Assembly: GCA_030614005.1 (NCBI GenBank)
Contig: JAUWKS010000038.1
Coordinates: 1 to 31,334, forward strand
DNA length: 31,334 bases
Source of the DNA: Candidatus Heimdallarchaeota archaeon
GTDB taxonomy: Archaea > Asgardarchaeota > Heimdallarchaeia > JABLTI01
Reading direction: 5' to 3'
Under the pieces are notes generated by a model, which did not search any database, was not told the DNA's origin, and saw only the letters and a program-made list of their open reading frames with translations. The first letter of the stretch is position 1; every line of letters begins with the position of its first letter. A program made the translations under genes and the position numbers. This document shows, piece by piece, positions 10,054 through 15,755 of this stretch.

Positions 10054-11637
10054 TTACTTCACTAGTATAGCTGTTACTCCTTCGATTATTCCATTCGATA
10101 TTATAGATGGAATAAATCCGAATAGTATTAGTGCTAATGCAATTAGAACACCAATAAACGTAGTTACAGAGAGATCATTACTCACTCCTGATGTTACTGG
10201 CGAAATTCTCTGTGATTTATTTAGTATTATGGATTTTAGCACAATCATATTACAGATTAATAGTAATAAAACCACCACTCCAATTAAAATACCAAATATT
10301 GAATATTCAGTTTTTATGAGTGAATAAATAATCATAAATATTGTTACTCCACCAAAAGTTGGAAGTATACCTACATTTGATAATAGGCTCACTGTAAAGA
10401 TAAACCCGGAAACTGGTAGGTTTTTTCCTGCTCCTCTCATTTGGATTAAATCATAACTTCCTCCGTTAGCTCCAGCAAATTTTTCTATACAAATAAAGCT
10501 TAGAAAAATCGTTGCAACTATATTTGCCATATACAAATAGCCATAACCAAGGCAATCTTGTAATAATCTTACTTCTGCTAGACCTTCCACAATTACTAGT
10601 CCATTAAATGATAATGTTGTTAATAGAATACCAATATTAACAAATGTTGTATAGACAATAATTTTCATTAAATTGATATCTTCTTTCTTGATTAATTGTC
10701 CAATAATCAGTAAAATACCCTCAAATGCAGTTACAAGTCCTATTCCAGCAACAATAAGGGAATAATTTGTGCCCGAAATAATTCCTGGATTGAAGATGTT
10801 ATTTAATATTCTAATAATTGAGAATACTGCGGTTACACTTGTGAAACCAGTAACCATTATTTTCACTCCTATGCGAGCATTTTGGATTGTAGATGCGGTC
10901 CAAATATTTAGTAAAAACAGATTGGCGAAAATACCGAAACTAATGATCACTAAAGCAATTATAAAATAGACAGCTAAATTCAGATTTTGCAGTAAATTAG
11001 TATTAAATAATTCATTTTCAAGTATATAAGCAAAATTCAAAGTGCCAAATAATCCATATGTTAGAATAACTGCTAAGAGGAGGAGAGCAATAGCAAAGCC
11101 TATTGTCATATAAGCTTTCACTCCGCCAACGCGTAAATCTTCCTTTGTTCTATCGAAAGTAATCAATAATATTAATGACACACCAATAATGACCCACGAA
11201 AGAAACAAAGTGAAGAAATCATATGTTAAAAACACTCCATTTATTCCAGAAATAAGCAAGAGGAAAAAGCTAATATAAATCGGTGCGTTTTGCTGTTCCC
11301 TTATTTTTGCTGTTTCATAAATCAACACAAATATCAATATGATATTTAAAAATAATAGTATCCAAGAGGATACGCCATCACCTCTAAATTGCACTCCAGT
11401 TGGAGGGGAATATTCTACACCAAGCGATGTATCATAAACACCATAGATAATTTTAGTCGTACTTGCTTTTACTTGAGTTATAATAGCACTAAGAAAAGCT
11501 ACAACAGCAATAATTCCTGCAACAGCAATTTCTCCAGAAAAACTCTTCAACCATTTTCGTAATCCGAATATAATTACTCCGAGTAAGAAGGGTAACAATA
11601 TCGGAATCAAGAGAATTATATTTACTGCAATAGCCAT
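10054..11637 (-). CDS. MrpD/NuoM/NuoN-like antiporter-fold membrane protein with divergent charged residues
   Basis: Multi-TM protein. GINGVFLTYDFFTLFLSW and KNLPVSGFIFTVSLLSNVGILPTFGG match the proton-antiporter (Oxidored_q1) family pattern. Likely start is ATG 11637, 1 nt after the upstream stop. Confidence 0.8.
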   Translation of the reverse strand: MAIAVNIILLIPILLPFLLGVIIFGLRKWLKSFSGEIAVAGIIAVVAFLSAIITQVKASTTKIIYGVYDTSLGVEYSPPTGVQFRGDGVSSWILLFLNIILIFVLIYETAKIREQQNAPIYISFFLLLISGINGVFLTYDFFTLFLSWVIIGVSLILLITFDRTKEDLRVGGVKAYMTIGFAIALLLLAVILTYGLFGTLNFAYILENELFNTNLLQNLNLAVYFIIALVIISFGIFANLFLLNIWTASTIQNARIGVKIMVTGFTSVTAVFSIIRILNNIFNPGIISGTNYSLIVAGIGLVTAFEGILLIIGQLIKKEDINLMKIIVYTTFVNIGILLTTLSFNGLVIVEGLAEVRLLQDCLGYGYLYMANIVATIFLSFICIEKFAGANGGSYDLIQMRGAGKNLPVSGFIFTVSLLSNVGILPTFGGVTIFMIIYSLIKTEYSIFGILIGVVVLLLLICNMIVLKSIILNKSQRISPVTSGVSNDLSVTTFIGVLIALALILFGFIPSIISNGIIEGVTAILVK

Positions 11638-11638
11638 T

Positions 11639-13555
11639 TTATGGTCTTCCTCCTGCAAATAAAATAGATACCAAGATAACGAAGGATAGTATAGCCCACA
11701 GAATGATTCCTCCCGGAGCTTTCAATCTTGTCCAGGTAAAATAGTTACTTAGAAAGCTGAATGGTTTTAATATCAAGTAATCATTGATTTTTTCCAAATA
11801 AAGTCCATGTTCTATTACAGACATAACCATTTTTGTTCCTTTGAAGTTTCTTATTGGAGTAAAGATTTTTCCGATTCCATCCCGGTAAGCAAAGAACGTT
11901 CCTACAAGAACTAAGGGTATTATTAGAAGCATTATCATTGATATTGCCCAATTGCTAAAGATTGGGAAATCATACCCTAAGTCTAGGTCTTTCAATAAAA
12001 GCCCTCTGAAAAATCTCGGTGTTGGAGTATCCACTATAATTAATATGAATCCAGCAAAACAAGACCATAATAGAATTAACCCCTCTGAAATCATTGATTG
12101 TAAGCTTATTGGTCTAACTGAGTATTCCTCATTCGTTTCACCAAATAATATTTTCATTAATGATTTTCCTACTGCAAAAATAAGTACTATAGTTGCAACC
12201 ATTGCTAATATCAAGAGTGCTATACTCGATGGAACAACACTTGTTCTTAACGATTCAAAGATCATATCGCGACTAAAGTAAGTACTAAATGGAAACATTC
12301 CAACATAACTTAAAATAGAGATAAATCCTAATATTTGCAAAGCTGGAAATCGTTTTCGTAATCCACTTACTCTTGTAATTTGTTTTATTCGCAAAGATTC
12401 GATTACCATTCCAAATATTATCGTCAATGCAACACTTGCCGCTGATCCAAGAATAAGATGATAGATTGTTGCAAGATAACCTAATTCATTTCCTGCACTT
12501 AGTGCTAAAAATGTTAAACTCACTTGAAAGAGTGAGGTACCGATCATTATTCTATTAATGTTCTTTGATGTAAAAATCACCACTAAACAGGTAACCATTG
12601 TTATTATTGCTGCCCATCCAATGATTATAAATGGTATACTATTGAATAATTCAGTTTCAAAGTGTACTTCTAAACCTTTATTCGAAAACATTGGAAAGAA
12701 TACGCATATGATATAGATACCAATATTACCCAAAGTTGCTGAAATAAGAAATGAAGAAATTGGTAATGGAGCTTTTGCCAAGTCTGCATCATTTTTTTCT
12801 CCGGATAAGGACCAAAGAAGTAATGGAAATTGCGCTGATTTAATGAGTGCACCAAGAACTATGAAAATTTCAATTAGTAATCTAGTATTGCCACTCGTAC
12901 CACCGATAATAGTTTTGGGAGTTCGTATCCATGCATTCATCAAATTCTCAAAATCTAGAGTATTGAATGCTTTACCGATAAAACCAATTCCGATTATTAA
13001 TAAAATATCTCCAACAAAGTTGAAAATGAAGAAGCGCATCGCTGCTTTTCCAACCTTTTCTCCTTCTTCTCCTGACTTATTTCTCCAGTGAGAAATAAGG
13101 AAAAAGCCTCCTAAACTAGCGATTGCAAAACCTAAAAACATCCATAATAGGTTATTTGAAAAGATTGCAAATAACATTCCTCCCTCTGTGATGAGAAAGA
13201 AAAACCAATAATTTGTTTGATTTCTATCTCCAGATAAATAATTGATAGAATAAAGTCCTAGCAAAGCACTAAGGGCACTTATTAAACAAGCAAATCCAAC
13301 TGATAATTCATTGATTCGTATCCCCAAGTAAAGATTGGGTAACCAAAGGAAATATTGACTTAGATGTAAATGCATTTGCCATAATAGAAGCAGAGAAATT
13401 ATCGCTGTTGGAATTAAAATGAAAATTACAAGAATCCAAGATCTAGTTTTTCCTTCTGCAGTAACATAATCCTCTAATTGAGATAGGAATAATGCTAATA
13501 ACGCACCAATAAATGGTAATAATATAGCAACCCAAGTAAGTATAATGCCATTCAT
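11639..13555 (-). CDS. NuoL/MrpA-like antiporter-fold membrane protein with divergent charged residues
   Basis: Motifs LLGLYSINYL, NNLLWMFLG, VGD, IKSAQFPL..W and GMFPFSTYFSRD; long C-terminal region as in NuoL. Confidence 0.85.
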   Translation of the reverse strand: MNGIILTWVAILLPFIGALLALFLSQLEDYVTAEGKTRSWILVIFILIPTAIISLLLLWQMHLHLSQYFLWLPNLYLGIRINELSVGFACLISALSALLGLYSINYLSGDRNQTNYWFFFLITEGGMLFAIFSNNLLWMFLGFAIASLGGFFLISHWRNKSGEEGEKVGKAAMRFFIFNFVGDILLIIGIGFIGKAFNTLDFENLMNAWIRTPKTIIGGTSGNTRLLIEIFIVLGALIKSAQFPLLLWSLSGEKNDADLAKAPLPISSFLISATLGNIGIYIICVFFPMFSNKGLEVHFETELFNSIPFIIIGWAAIITMVTCLVVIFTSKNINRIMIGTSLFQVSLTFLALSAGNELGYLATIYHLILGSAASVALTIIFGMVIESLRIKQITRVSGLRKRFPALQILGFISILSYVGMFPFSTYFSRDMIFESLRTSVVPSSIALLILAMVATIVLIFAVGKSLMKILFGETNEEYSVRPISLQSMISEGLILLWSCFAGFILIIVDTPTPRFFRGLLLKDLDLGYDFPIFSNWAISMIMLLIIPLVLVGTFFAYRDGIGKIFTPIRNFKGTKMVMSVIEHGLYLEKINDYLILKPFSFLSNYFTWTRLKAPGGIILWAILSFVILVSILFAGGRP

Positions 13556-13558
13556 TTT

Positions 13559-13939
13559 TCATTTTTCCTCCTCTGTTTGAGCACTAGTTTCTTCGACTCT
13601 TTGCCCTTCTTGCATACTGAAATCAAAATCAAGCAAGGTTGATCCTTCGTTAACCTTACGCAATCTCTTGTCTAAGCCTACTCCAATTATAACAAAAATA
13701 GCACCCACTATTATAATGAAAAATGCTAAAGTCTGCGCAAGAGGATCTGCGAAAGTGATACTCTGATTGTTTGCTGCACCAAAGGACAATAACAGTAAAT
13801 TTCCGGCCATTAAAAGAAAAACAATACCAAATACTACTTTAAGGAATTTTTTTGCTGTAATCAAAGAATAAATCCCAATACAAAAAAGTATCATTACTGC
13901 TAGTATTGTATAAGGGAATGGTGTGGTCCAATCTAACAT
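13559..13939 (-). CDS. MrpC/NuoK-like small membrane subunit
   Basis: LFCIGIYSLIT.K.FLKVVFG..GNLLLLSFG and DPLAQ (cf. MrpC DPLPQAL); 3 TM. Start overlaps the upstream stop (TAATG). Confidence 0.8.
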   Translation of the reverse strand: MLDWTTPFPYTILAVMILFCIGIYSLITAKKFLKVVFGIVFLLMAGNLLLLSFGAANNQSITFADPLAQTLAFFIIIVGAIFVIIGVGLDKRLRKVNEGSTLLDFDFSMQEGQRVEETSAQTEEEK

Positions 13940-14268
13940 TAATAATATCTCCTCCTTTGCTGCTGGGTTTGTTTTTGCGGTTGTTTTATCACTTCAAAAT
14001 TGACAAGATAATAAGAACCCATTATTGCTAAAGAAATTATTATTAAAATTAGAAGAAGATCATATACTCTAAATGTCCAGAGATTTCGTCCAATTTCTTG
14101 CCCTATAATTGCATAGTTTACTTCTGTCTGATTTGGTCCTGAATAAAAGGAATCTTGATTTATTTCTAGAAAAACTAAGAAAAAGACCATACCAAATAAT
14201 CCTGCACTGATAATCCCTATACCACGTACAAACCATTGATTTAATCGATTTATTTTTGATTCAGTCAT
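13939..14268 (-). CDS. Small 2-TM subunit resembling the NuoJ C-terminal half / MbhE-like subunit
   Basis: IGRNLWTFRVYDLLLILIIISLAIMGSYYL; position between the NuoA-like and NuoK/MrpC-like genes. Confidence 0.5.
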   Translation of the reverse strand: MTESKINRLNQWFVRGIGIISAGLFGMVFFLVFLEINQDSFYSGPNQTEVNYAIIGQEIGRNLWTFRVYDLLLILIIISLAIMGSYYLVNFEVIKQPQKQTQQQRRRYY

Positions 14269-14287
14269 AATTTCTCTCTCTGCGAGT

Positions 14288-14704
14288 TTAAAATCTCCTC
14301 ATATCTTTTTGAACTGTGCGTTTGCTTCTCAGTTTAGACCAATCAACAACAGCAAGACAAATGAAAATAATCACTAGGACTGCTAAGATAAATGGCCATA
14401 TATCAGCTAGAACTAATATTTCAAACAATCCATACAATGGGAAGATAAGTAAAATAATAAAGATTTCAAATACAAGTATGTAAACCGTATATTGATATAA
14501 TTTGTTTAGTTGTTCACCTGAGGTTTTTGTAGTAACTTTCTGATATTCCGGTGGTTCTTCTTCTACACCTTTTGTTTTTTGTTTAATTACTTTTCCAATT
14601 ATTGAAACAACTACTGCTGTTATAATCATTGCAGCAGCAAAACCAAAGGCCAATGCAACAATAATCGGCAAATCTTGCAATTGTAAAGGCATTATTCTTC
14701 CCAC
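14288..14704 (-). CDS. NuoA-like 3-TM subunit, divergent
   Basis: TM1, a long hydrophilic loop, then YTVYILVFEIFIILLIFP (cf. NuoA YLVAMFFVIFDVE) and TM3 ending in DW; first gene of the operon. Confidence 0.6.
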   Translation of the reverse strand: MGRIMPLQLQDLPIIVALAFGFAAAMIITAVVVSIIGKVIKQKTKGVEEEPPEYQKVTTKTSGEQLNKLYQYTVYILVFEIFIILLIFPLYGLFEILVLADIWPFILAVLVIIFICLAVVDWSKLRSKRTVQKDMRRF

Positions 14705-15017
14705 TTATTATTTCTCTATTATGCATATATCAATTCTATATATTAGCTAATTGGTTCCTTTAAGAAGAAAAGTTTGTTACAAATTACTTTATTACTACTC
14801 ATTAACTCTTGTTTCAAATGAGACATTCTACTTTATTTAACGTGCAAAAGAATCTAATCCAGAACCAATAAAATCTTTTGCTTTCTTTGGTACTATTGCA
14901 CTTGTACTAACTAGAAGCACCCTTTTTCTTCATTTGCTATGTACAAAAAAGGTTGCTCTGAAAATAAAAGACTTTGAAAAAAATTAGAAAAAGCATCAGA
15001 TAGCTTGAAAAATCAAA

Positions 15018-15755
15018 CTATATTTGATGCATCCATAATAGACTACGATAAACGTTTACAATTCGTTTTTTGAGTTCTACAGCAGCTTTTGATTCATTCA
15101 TCTTTTCTAAGCCTTTGAGAACTTTACGACAATAATCACATTCTTCACCATTATCTACTTTCTTCCCATCAATATCGAGGATTACTTCAGATTCATAGTA
15201 ATCTCTGAGAGCGGGAGTAATGCCAATTATATCGTAATCTCTTGGATCAAAGAATGTTTCAGCATACCAGCTGATTCGTAAATCTTTCTTATGAACAAAT
15301 AATTTCATAGTAGCTATTGCAATCTCCATAAGAGCCAAATCACCGACAACGACAACCGTTTTACCTGTCATTACTGGTTTCATAACATACTCTAGATCTC
15401 TACCGAAAGTTTTGAGCATCAAAGTAATACTTGCTCTTGCTTCAGCTTGTGATCCTGGAGAAGCTGCTGCTGCTGCAGCCGTTGAACCAGCTTGCGCTAT
15501 TGCTGCTGCTGCAGATCGCGCAGAGGCTTCTTCTCTGCTGCTTCTTGCAATCGTTGAGGAACGATGTTGCCTCAAAGATAAATTTTTATCTAAAAATAAG
15601 GTAATGACATGATCATCATGAAGGTATGATACTTGCCATAGCCCACCTACTTGTGTTTTTAAATCGTCTACGTAAATTGGTATGAAAATATCCTTTCCAC
15701 ACCCTTTACAAGTGAGCGATATTTCTTTTAATGGTACCCTTGCAGATGACAACAA
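15018..15755 (-). CDS. Hypothetical protein: N-terminal CxxC...HxxH domain, Ala-rich linker, DENN-like alpha/beta domain
   Basis: TTG start with GGAG upstream; CKGC...LHDDH; SAAAAIAQAGSTAAAAAAS linker; VMKPVMTGKTVVVVGD resembles the cDENN core. The DENN call is tentative. Confidence 0.6.
   Translation of the reverse strand: MLSSARVPLKEISLTCKGCGKDIFIPIYVDDLKTQVGGLWQVSYLHDDHVITLFLDKNLSLRQHRSSTIARSSREEASARSAAAAIAQAGSTAAAAAASPGSQAEARASITLMLKTFGRDLEYVMKPVMTGKTVVVVGDLALMEIAIATMKLFVHKKDLRISWYAETFFDPRDYDIIGITPALRDYYESEVILDIDGKKVDNGEECDYCRKVLKGLEKMNESKAAVELKKRIVNVYRSLLWMHQI

Follow-up and report, generated by a model that had tools for sequence, protein, structure and literature searches.

The 31,334-nt stretch JAUWKS010000038.1 (the whole of which we call the window), from the genome of a Candidatus Heimdallarchaeota archaeon, carries at positions 10054-14704 of its minus strand a module of five closely packed genes related to the membrane arm of complex I. 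We find that this module is under purifying selection and is not decaying, that its proteins have lost most of the canonical residues for ion translocation, and that a three-gene operon on another contig of the same genome encodes degenerate relatives of NuoD and NuoH with the same distribution and divergence profile. On balance, we lean towards the view that the two loci together encode a cofactor-less complex-I-like 'pseudo-complex', the architecture of which has been kept for a structural or conformational role. The machine is probably kept for something other than redox-driven pumping.

The five genes, named here after the subunits that they resemble, and the elements upstream of them are as follows (TM, transmembrane helix; ORF, open reading frame; aa, amino acids).

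A' (S1), 14288-14692, minus strand: 134 aa, three TMs, probably NuoA-derived; the ORF opens with GTG at 14704, and orthologs point to ATG at 14692 as the likely start.
J2' (S2), 13939-14268, minus strand: 109 aa, two TMs, probable homolog of the C-terminal half of a split NuoJ (MbhE/MrpB-type).
K' (S3), 13559-13939, minus strand: 126 aa, NuoK/MrpC homolog, with Val40 at the TM2 Glu position.
L' (S4), 11639-13555, minus strand: 638 aa, NuoL-type, with a lateral helix at about 563-608 and a C-terminal anchor TM at 614-634.
N' (S5), 10054-11637, minus strand: 527 aa, NuoN/MrpD-type; the ORF opens with TTG at 11658, and orthologs place the start at ATG 11637.
TATA-like AT-rich elements, 14723-14745, minus strand: 31-53 nt upstream of the A' start, read from the sequence only.

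A first-pass annotation of the window had described five intact, tightly packed genes without flanking redox or Mrp genes, and both statements are borne out. All five ORFs are free of stop codons and follow one another with gaps of 19, -1, 3 and 1 nt, and no gene for NuoH, NuoB, NuoC, NuoD or NuoI, for a hydrogenase or for an Mrp subunit was found within the window. About 310 bp separate A' from the gene upstream; because this spacer contains T-rich runs after the stop of that gene (15018) as well as the TATA-like elements, the five genes look like a transcription unit of their own, for which the elements at 14723-14745 are a possible promoter. The position of the module beside the gene for the large subunit of PolD is conserved in related genomes. 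This archaeal PolD subunit with its intein, like the best matches of L', agrees with a Heimdallarchaeial source.

The family of three of the proteins could be read directly from profile matches. K' belongs to the NuoK family (PF00420, 45.1 bits, E 8.8e-12, cut-off 26.1). L' matches PF00361 (108.5 bits, E 4.7e-31, cut-off 21.5) and PF00662 (26.6 bits, cut-off 24.5), and among NCBIfam models it scores 166 bits with NuoL (E 1.4e-48) compared with 123 for the best MrpA model. N' also matches PF00361 (50.7 bits, E 2e-13, cut-off 21.5), with MrpD models and structures giving the best scores. The NCBIfam equivalog scores of all the module proteins lie far below their respective cut-offs.

A' and J2', which have no Pfam match above cut-off, required more sensitive comparisons. 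A' has a long charged loop between TM1 and TM2 and a basic, conserved C-terminal tail (SKRTVQKDMRR), and only 24 relatives, all of about 130-140 aa, were recovered when 1.84 billion representative proteins were searched with a profile. A profile built from 19 relatives aligned with a profile of Heimdall NuoA at an hhalign probability of 79% (E 1.6e-5) over 89 collinear columns spanning TM1, the loop and TM2, compared with 1.4% for the N-terminal half of NuoJ. The link to NuoA is visible only with family profiles on both sides; single-sequence searches with A' gave no significant match, and there was no signal against the genome's own NuoA, J1 or J2 sequence. J2' aligned with the 140-aa J2 subunit of the same genome, again at a probability of 79% (E 1.6e-5), and shares the motif W-x-x-R-x-x-D; its match to Pfam Oxidored_q3 is weak (E 0.011). 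When 22 subunits were searched with hmmsearch, the A' profile matched NuoA only and the J2' profile matched canonical J2 only. Profile searches of the PDB with A' and J2' returned nothing significant (E. coli NuoA at E 0.24), and look-ups of A' in the ESM Atlas gave unnamed clusters only. The original labels of the five genes (A-like, J/MbhE-like, K, L and M/N/D-like) are thus reasonable.

The predicted folds of the two large subunits agree with these assignments. The AlphaFold2 model of L' (predicted TM-score, pTM, 0.81) superimposes on E. coli NuoL over its full length (Foldseek TM-score 0.75-0.80), and its helices 563-608 and 614-634 correspond to the lateral helix and anchor TM of NuoL, in a region where the per-residue confidence (pLDDT) is low. 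The model of N' (pTM 0.79) has an N-terminal beta-hairpin and discontinuous TM7 and TM12. Outside the family, L' comes closest to the L subunit encoded in a complete Hodarchaeales operon that has two antiporter-like subunits. Signals of origin, as judged from search scores and not from a tree, are mixed: L' and the NuoD homolog described below (D') are nearer to this short-arm operon, N' is nearer to the genome's own NuoN, and the NuoH homolog (H') is about equally close to both.

We then compared the charged residues of the module with those of solved structures, using family alignments made from metagenomic orthologs and from the loci of ten related genomes, the profiles of which were aligned to the chains 6z16_D (MrpD), 6cfw_H (MbhH) and 8e9g_L (NuoL). 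In N', all of the canonical charges in TM5, TM7, TM8, TM11 and TM12 are gone in every ortholog. Against 6z16_D and 6cfw_H, the positions are occupied in the family as follows.

TM5 Glu position: Val, Thr or Ile.
TM7 Lys position: Phe, Leu or Val.
TM8 Lys position: Ser or Val.
TM11 Lys/His position: hydrophobic.
TM12 Lys/Glu position: Ile, Leu or Tyr.

In the window itself, WE has become WV (Val156, codon 11191-11193), the TM7 Lys (AVK) is Phe, the TM8 Lys (LLK) is Val/Ser and the TM12 Lys/Glu is Ile, which are the substitutions, at the exact coordinates, that the first-pass annotation had read by eye.

L' presents a more graded picture. All of 21 sequences have the TM7 Lys, TM6 Asp and TM12 Asp, and none has the TM8 His or the TM11 His/Lys; the TM12 Lys position holds Lys or Arg, and Leu in three species. 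The TM5 Glu is present in 16 of the 21, and is Ala only within the subclade of the window (at least 71% identity to the window protein). In the window, LGWE reads LGFA, with Ala144 encoded at 13124-13126 precisely as had been noted, and the earlier calls that the equivalents of H338, K342 and the His of ALIH were lost, while those of K229, D178 and H334 remained and K399 had become Arg, also hold: Lys239, Asp183, His366 and Asp430 are retained, the TM12 Lys is Arg429, and the profile alignment to 8e9g_L places no His or Lys at the TM8 and TM11 positions. The Glu that had been singled out as unusual in the preceding helix (ITEGG) is indeed present, as Glu124; because it is Gln in the nearest relatives, it is not a conserved novelty.

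For the small subunits, the TM2 Glu of K' is Glu in six of 11 orthologs, Val or Ile in the window's subclade (Val40 in the window), and Gln and Asn in one further ortholog each. The absence of the TM3 Glu from K' is uninformative, because the ordinary NuoK of the genome has the TM2 Glu and also lacks the TM3 Glu. A' lacks the Y-x-C-G-E loop motif of NuoA, so that the loss of the ECG loop reported from the sequence stands in alignment with NuoA. As a control, the ordinary NuoL, NuoM and NuoN of the genome retain the TM5 Glu, TM7 Lys, TM11 His/Lys and TM12 Lys/Glu. The losses are therefore graded. They are family-wide for N' and partial for L' and K', with the additional loss of the L' TM5 Glu and the K' TM2 Glu in the window's subclade; the claim of systematic charge loss thus applies in full to N', but not to the L' TM5 Glu and K' TM2 Glu, which most orthologs keep. 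A Glu at position 73 of A' (VFEIF), opposite the conserved TM2 Asp of NuoA in the alignment, occurs only in the window's subclade; Gly, Ala or Ser stands there in the other orthologs. Since the same subclade lost the Glu residues of K' and L', a charge may have been relocated, as far as can be read from the sequences.

Ordinary counterparts of these subunits, which the first-pass annotation had proposed to seek, are present elsewhere in the genome. Contig C34 carries at 65834-76321 (4835-15322 of the extracted locus L006) a complete A-B-C-D-H-I-J1-J2-K-L-M-N operon with three antiporter-like subunits that have canonical charges. Its D subunit has both Ni-Fe motifs, CGIC...H and DPCFSC, and the operon is therefore a [NiFe]-hydrogenase/complex-I hybrid, of the kind reported for Heimdallarchaeia (bioRxiv 10.1101/2024.07.04.601786). 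This operon is the organism's ordinary energy-converting enzyme. A gene for a 427-aa 4Fe-4S protein lies directly upstream of it.

Searching for NuoH uncovered, in addition to the canonical gene, a second and divergent copy on contig C29, in the three-gene operon D'-H'-X.

D', contig C29: 381 aa, homolog of NuoD and the [NiFe] large subunit (PF00346, E 1e-36).
H', contig C29: 346 aa, degenerate NuoH (PF00146, E 2.6e-15).
X, contig C29, 9282-9935 (minus strand) of the extracted locus L040: 217 aa, membrane protein with about six TMs downstream of H', of no known family.

D' keeps the core motifs ELERI, GPxAR and DPY. It lacks the CxxC...H and DPCxxC motifs (the protein ends before the C-terminal one) and the GPQHP loop and Tyr region of the quinone site; none of the six D' orthologs aligned has the four Ni-Fe cysteine ligands, which the C34 subunit does have. 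From H', the RxGP loop is missing, as is most of the acidic loop between TM5 and TM6. Both proteins have only 24% identity to the canonical D and H.

The presence of this degenerate NuoD-like/NuoH-like pair, with the same distribution and divergence profile as the module, argues against the earlier proposal of a self-contained pseudo-antiporter without a peripheral partner. The suggestion that peripheral-arm genes be sought elsewhere was thus fruitful in so far as D' and H' were found; a phmmer search of all ORFs of the genome found no second NuoB, NuoC or NuoI, and the further NuoB-like and NuoD-like matches belonged only to cytosolic hydrogenases. Orthologs of D' (>250 bits) occur in all nine congeners, and in the second genus of the family H' and X are found on a contig that starts at H'. 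Six genomes share the synteny of D', H' and X, with no Fe-S subunit found near any of these six loci. Distant relatives of X (45-63 bits) occur in two further Asgard families from which D' and H' are lacking, and the ESM Atlas has look-alikes in Thermoplasmatota, where the clusters are unnamed; on sequence grounds, X is a member of a wider uncharacterised archaeal membrane family.

Several further features of the C29 locus and its counterparts can be recorded here. A 171-aa protein with a single TM is encoded at 7004-7519 (plus strand) of L040, where one neighbouring gene encodes a Ras-like GTPase and the other a VWA/CDC48_N protein. Its divergence is as fast as that of D' and H' (61/40/40/42% identity) where the neighbours range from 64 to 97%, and nothing points to its belonging to the complex. 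Two genomes (G270 and G276; loci L057 and L058) have a 344-aa gene on the opposite strand between D' and H', which in the other four genomes lies a few kilobases upstream of D'. The D' match in G276 carries one in-frame TAA.

Both loci appear to be maintained. The ratio of nonsynonymous to synonymous substitution rates (dN/dS) was 0.10-0.25 for the five module genes when the window was compared with its two nearest relatives (dS 0.4-0.8), compared with 0.07-0.18 for flanking genes; it was 0.11-0.23 for L' and N' in other clades and 0.17-0.18 for D' and H'. Values of 0.74-0.89 for J2' and K' between the loci L012 and L013, at a dS of 0.05-0.08, reflect too few substitutions to interpret. In a search of 300 Asgard genomes, every one of the ten further genomes from the same GTDB family had the N' family (>500 bits), and none of the 289 outside it did; there the matches were ordinary NuoN-like proteins at 171 bits or less. 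None of the five ORFs is disrupted in any of the family's 11 genomes, at divergences down to 35% identity. We conclude that the module is under purifying selection, as had been supposed from the intact reading frames. Across the genus, its genes nevertheless have 35-50% identity, as against 80-90% for their neighbours. The sequencing runs holding the genome are of DNA from cold-seep and marine-sediment metagenomes, with no RNA run listed.

The two loci share this pattern of rapid divergence. The identities (%) between proteins of our genome (G000) and their counterparts in G234/G258/G288/G228 are as follows.

L': 84/50/49/43.
N': 86/48/42/36.
D': 84/41/40/39.
H': 84/46/46/40.
U245, the 245-aa protein flanking the module: 91/84/81/82.
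Flanking VWA protein: 97/84/84/86.

Moreover, the subunit sets are complementary: the first locus supplies A, J2, K, L and N, and the second D and H. NuoA is a complex I subunit that packs against NuoH. An A' derived from NuoA is structurally sensible only beside a NuoH, and so the likelier unit is a two-locus complex-I-like assembly without Fe-S subunits. Given the co-distribution, the matching divergence and the complementarity of subunits, a single assembly encoded at two loci is the most economical reading.

According to this reading, the five genes (A', J2', K', L' and N') would encode one half, the membrane arm, of a second complex-I-like assembly specific to this lineage, and the D'-H'-X operon the other half, with paralogs of neither the Fe-S subunits NuoB and NuoI nor NuoC. 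The products of both loci would form one complex, in which redox chemistry and ion pumping are no longer coupled. N' would not form an ion channel, whereas L' might still have a residual ion site or half-channel (Glu-Lys-Lys/Arg) in the species that keep these residues. Selection would then preserve the architecture itself, as a membrane scaffold or as a conformational transducer. In the window's clade, the L' Glu and the K' Glu disappeared together with no sign of relaxed constraint, which argues that the selected function is independent of both. A more specific version holds that Heimdallarchaeaceae keep a complete pseudo-complex I of seven or eight subunits (A', D', H', J2', K', L', N' and perhaps X) that is put together in the manner of complex I, lacks both a redox cofactor and a functional proton path and has been co-opted as a conformational device within the membrane or as a scaffold; we regard this as speculative and somewhat doubtful.

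Several points weigh against a two-locus pseudo-complex. D'-H'-X and the five-gene module are adjacent in no genome examined. The assignments of A' to NuoA and of J2' to the C-terminal half of NuoJ rest on profile-profile probabilities of only ~79%, and no paralog of the N-terminal half of NuoJ (TM1-3) was found in the genome; X was considered for this missing half, to which it has no detectable similarity. It is conceivable in principle that the paralogous complex shares the Fe-S subunits encoded by the C34 operon. Finally, L' keeps its invariant TM7 Lys, TM6 Asp and TM12 Asp, and mostly the TM5 Glu and TM12 Lys/Arg, and K' has its Glu in most species, so that some binding or transport of ions through L' may persist. 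A structure prediction for H' together with A', J2' and K' scored 0.31 against a mark of 0.32 and is counted on neither side.

The retained charges also form the basis of the best-surviving alternative, which is that the module acts by itself as a reduced, Mrp-like transporter of cations and protons, working through non-canonical residues, with N' as a structural partner and D' and H' unrelated to it. Its path would run mainly through L' (Lys239, Asp183, His156, Lys160, Arg/Lys429-Asp430 and, mostly, the TM5 Glu) and the K' Glu. The combination of an L-type subunit bearing a lateral helix with D-type, K-type and J-type subunits does mirror the Mrp core, N' scores best against MrpD, and three L' charges are invariant in 21 orthologs, with the TM5 Glu in 16 of them. 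However, MrpE, MrpG and MrpB (PF01899, PF03334 and PF04039) were unmatched in this 90%-complete genome in a search where controls were matched and MrpF (PF04066) was not included. L' is NuoL-type by 166 to 123 bits and has no fused C-terminal domain, A' is probably derived from NuoA, the TM12 position is Leu in three species, and the window's lineage lacks both the L' Glu and the K' Glu and is still under purifying selection. We therefore consider this alternative unlikely.

A second alternative, which we judge more improbable still, is that the paralogs are alternative subunits that join the single-copy NuoB, NuoC, NuoI and J1 of the C34 operon in an isoform of that enzyme, such as one that is regulatory or does not pump. 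The subunits that lack a paralog, namely B, C, I and J1, coincide exactly with those that the C34 operon has in single copy; cyanobacterial NDH-1 uses alternative NdhD and NdhF paralogs in this manner. D', however, lacks the Ni-Fe cysteines and the quinone His/Tyr, so that electrons arriving via B would find no acceptor. In addition, D' and H' have only 24% identity to canonical D and H, whereas canonical A and J1 have 67-93% identity within the clade, which suggests that the interfaces are unlikely to be interchangeable. The remaining alternative, a recently inactivated operon in slow decay, would account for the lost canonical residues and for evolution faster than that of the neighbours, but it is largely refuted, and in our estimation very improbable indeed, given the ORFs intact throughout the family, the dN/dS of 0.10-0.25, the intact predicted folds and N' losses that are ancestral to the family.

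The surroundings of the module have features of their own. The 245-aa protein encoded upstream (15018-15755, minus strand) has a CxxC zinc ribbon at its N-terminus, then a linker rich in Ala and Ser and a C-terminal domain, and belongs to no Pfam family. Its gene lies upstream of the module in nine of nine related loci that reach that far, is 75-91% conserved, and has close orthologs confined to the same GTDB family; many larger Heimdall proteins contain versions of the C-terminal domain, at 25-34% identity. We reject this gene as a member of the operon because of the ~310-bp spacer, with its T-rich runs and TATA-like element, although its close orthologs are restricted to the family as well. 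In some relatives, a soluble protein without a Pfam family is encoded between it and A' (1119 aa at L008:5450-8809 and 896 aa at L009:6080-8770), and L013 has a gap of about 2.9 kb at the corresponding site, between 5841 and 8802. The N-terminus of this intervening protein appears roadblock/longin-like by eye. Since no counterpart was found in our own genome, the intervening protein is not an obligate part of the module. On the other side, the gene for the PolD large subunit (DP2; window 5027-9940, minus strand) contains an intein with a LAGLIDADG domain and encodes 1637 aa, compared with 1166 aa for the intein-less ortholog in L009. The pseudo-complex could conceivably link to the GTPase, roadblock-type and zinc-ribbon proteins that adjoin both loci.

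To our knowledge, all known members of the complex I, Mrp and membrane-hydrogenase superfamily are thought to move ions via one conserved buried chain of Glu, Lys and His residues. Here, that chain is gone from a full set of paralogs and every cofactor ligand from its partner subunits, yet the genes have been kept intact under purifying selection through deep divergence in a lineage near the archaeal ancestor of eukaryotes. If the architecture has a second, non-bioenergetic use, this would be a new type of pseudoenzyme complex, and a pseudo-complex I would be the earliest known case of a complex I superfamily descendant with a non-bioenergetic role; if ions are instead moved by very different residues, the system bears on the debate over which residues of complex I are mechanistically essential. 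In either case, the graded natural variants (L' Glu and K' Glu kept, both lost, or TM12 Leu in three species) provide a comparative test set for essential residues.

How, then, does the set compare with known systems? With the membrane arm of complex I and Fpo it shares the subunit families (for A' and J2' probably), the gene order J-K-L-N, the probable split NuoJ of archaeal operons, the lateral helix and anchor TM of NuoL, and the broken TM7 and TM12. It differs in that the module has only two antiporter-like subunits, of which N' lacks the conserved Glu and Lys and L' the connecting residues of TM8 and TM11, and in that the set lacks NuoB, NuoC and NuoI, its D and H partners being encoded elsewhere and having lost their cofactor and quinone ligands. 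Like an Mrp antiporter, it has an L/MrpA-type and an MrpD-type subunit bridged by a lateral helix, along with small subunits of the MrpC/NuoK and J/MrpB types; unlike one, its L' is without the MrpB/NuoJ-like C-terminal domain of MrpA, the conserved charges are missing, one subunit is probably derived from NuoA, and MrpE, MrpG and MrpB were not found in the genome.

Ehr (energy-converting-hydrogenase-related) complexes were reportedly described by Marreiros et al. in 2013. The Ehr/Mbx group (PMC6349859) also combines a large-subunit homolog lacking the Ni-Fe ligands with NuoH-like and antiporter-like membrane subunits. These complexes, however, retain Fe-S subunits of the NuoB and ferredoxin types and are believed to link redox reactions with ion translocation, whereas our set has no paralog of an Fe-S subunit, has largely lost the antiporter-like charges, and is spread over two loci. 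Membrane-bound [NiFe] hydrogenases of group 4 differ in having the four Ni-Fe cysteine ligands that D' lacks. Within this class, shorter membrane arms have been noted in Heimdallarchaeia (bioRxiv 10.1101/2024.07.04.601786), in the text of which we found no mention of a cofactor-less set. The Hodarchaeales A-B-CD-H-I-J1-J2-K-L-N operon resembles ours in its two antiporter-like subunits, and its L subunit is the closest to L'; these short-arm operons form complete, uninterrupted clusters with B and I among their genes, whereas the present set is without B and I and has lost catalytic and pumping residues. Nor did we find, in the literature searched, a description of a cofactor-less, charge-depleted complex-I-like set.

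Complex-I-type antiporter-like subunits do take on roles beyond classical respiratory pumping in cyanobacterial NdhD3/NdhF3-CupA and in DabB/MpsA. Compared by description and not by sequence, these differ from our set in working with a soluble carbonic-anhydrase-like partner, of which there is none here. The set is clearly derived from the complex I superfamily, but the features that define complex I, Mrp antiporters, Ehr/Mbx complexes and group 4 hydrogenases place it outside each of them.

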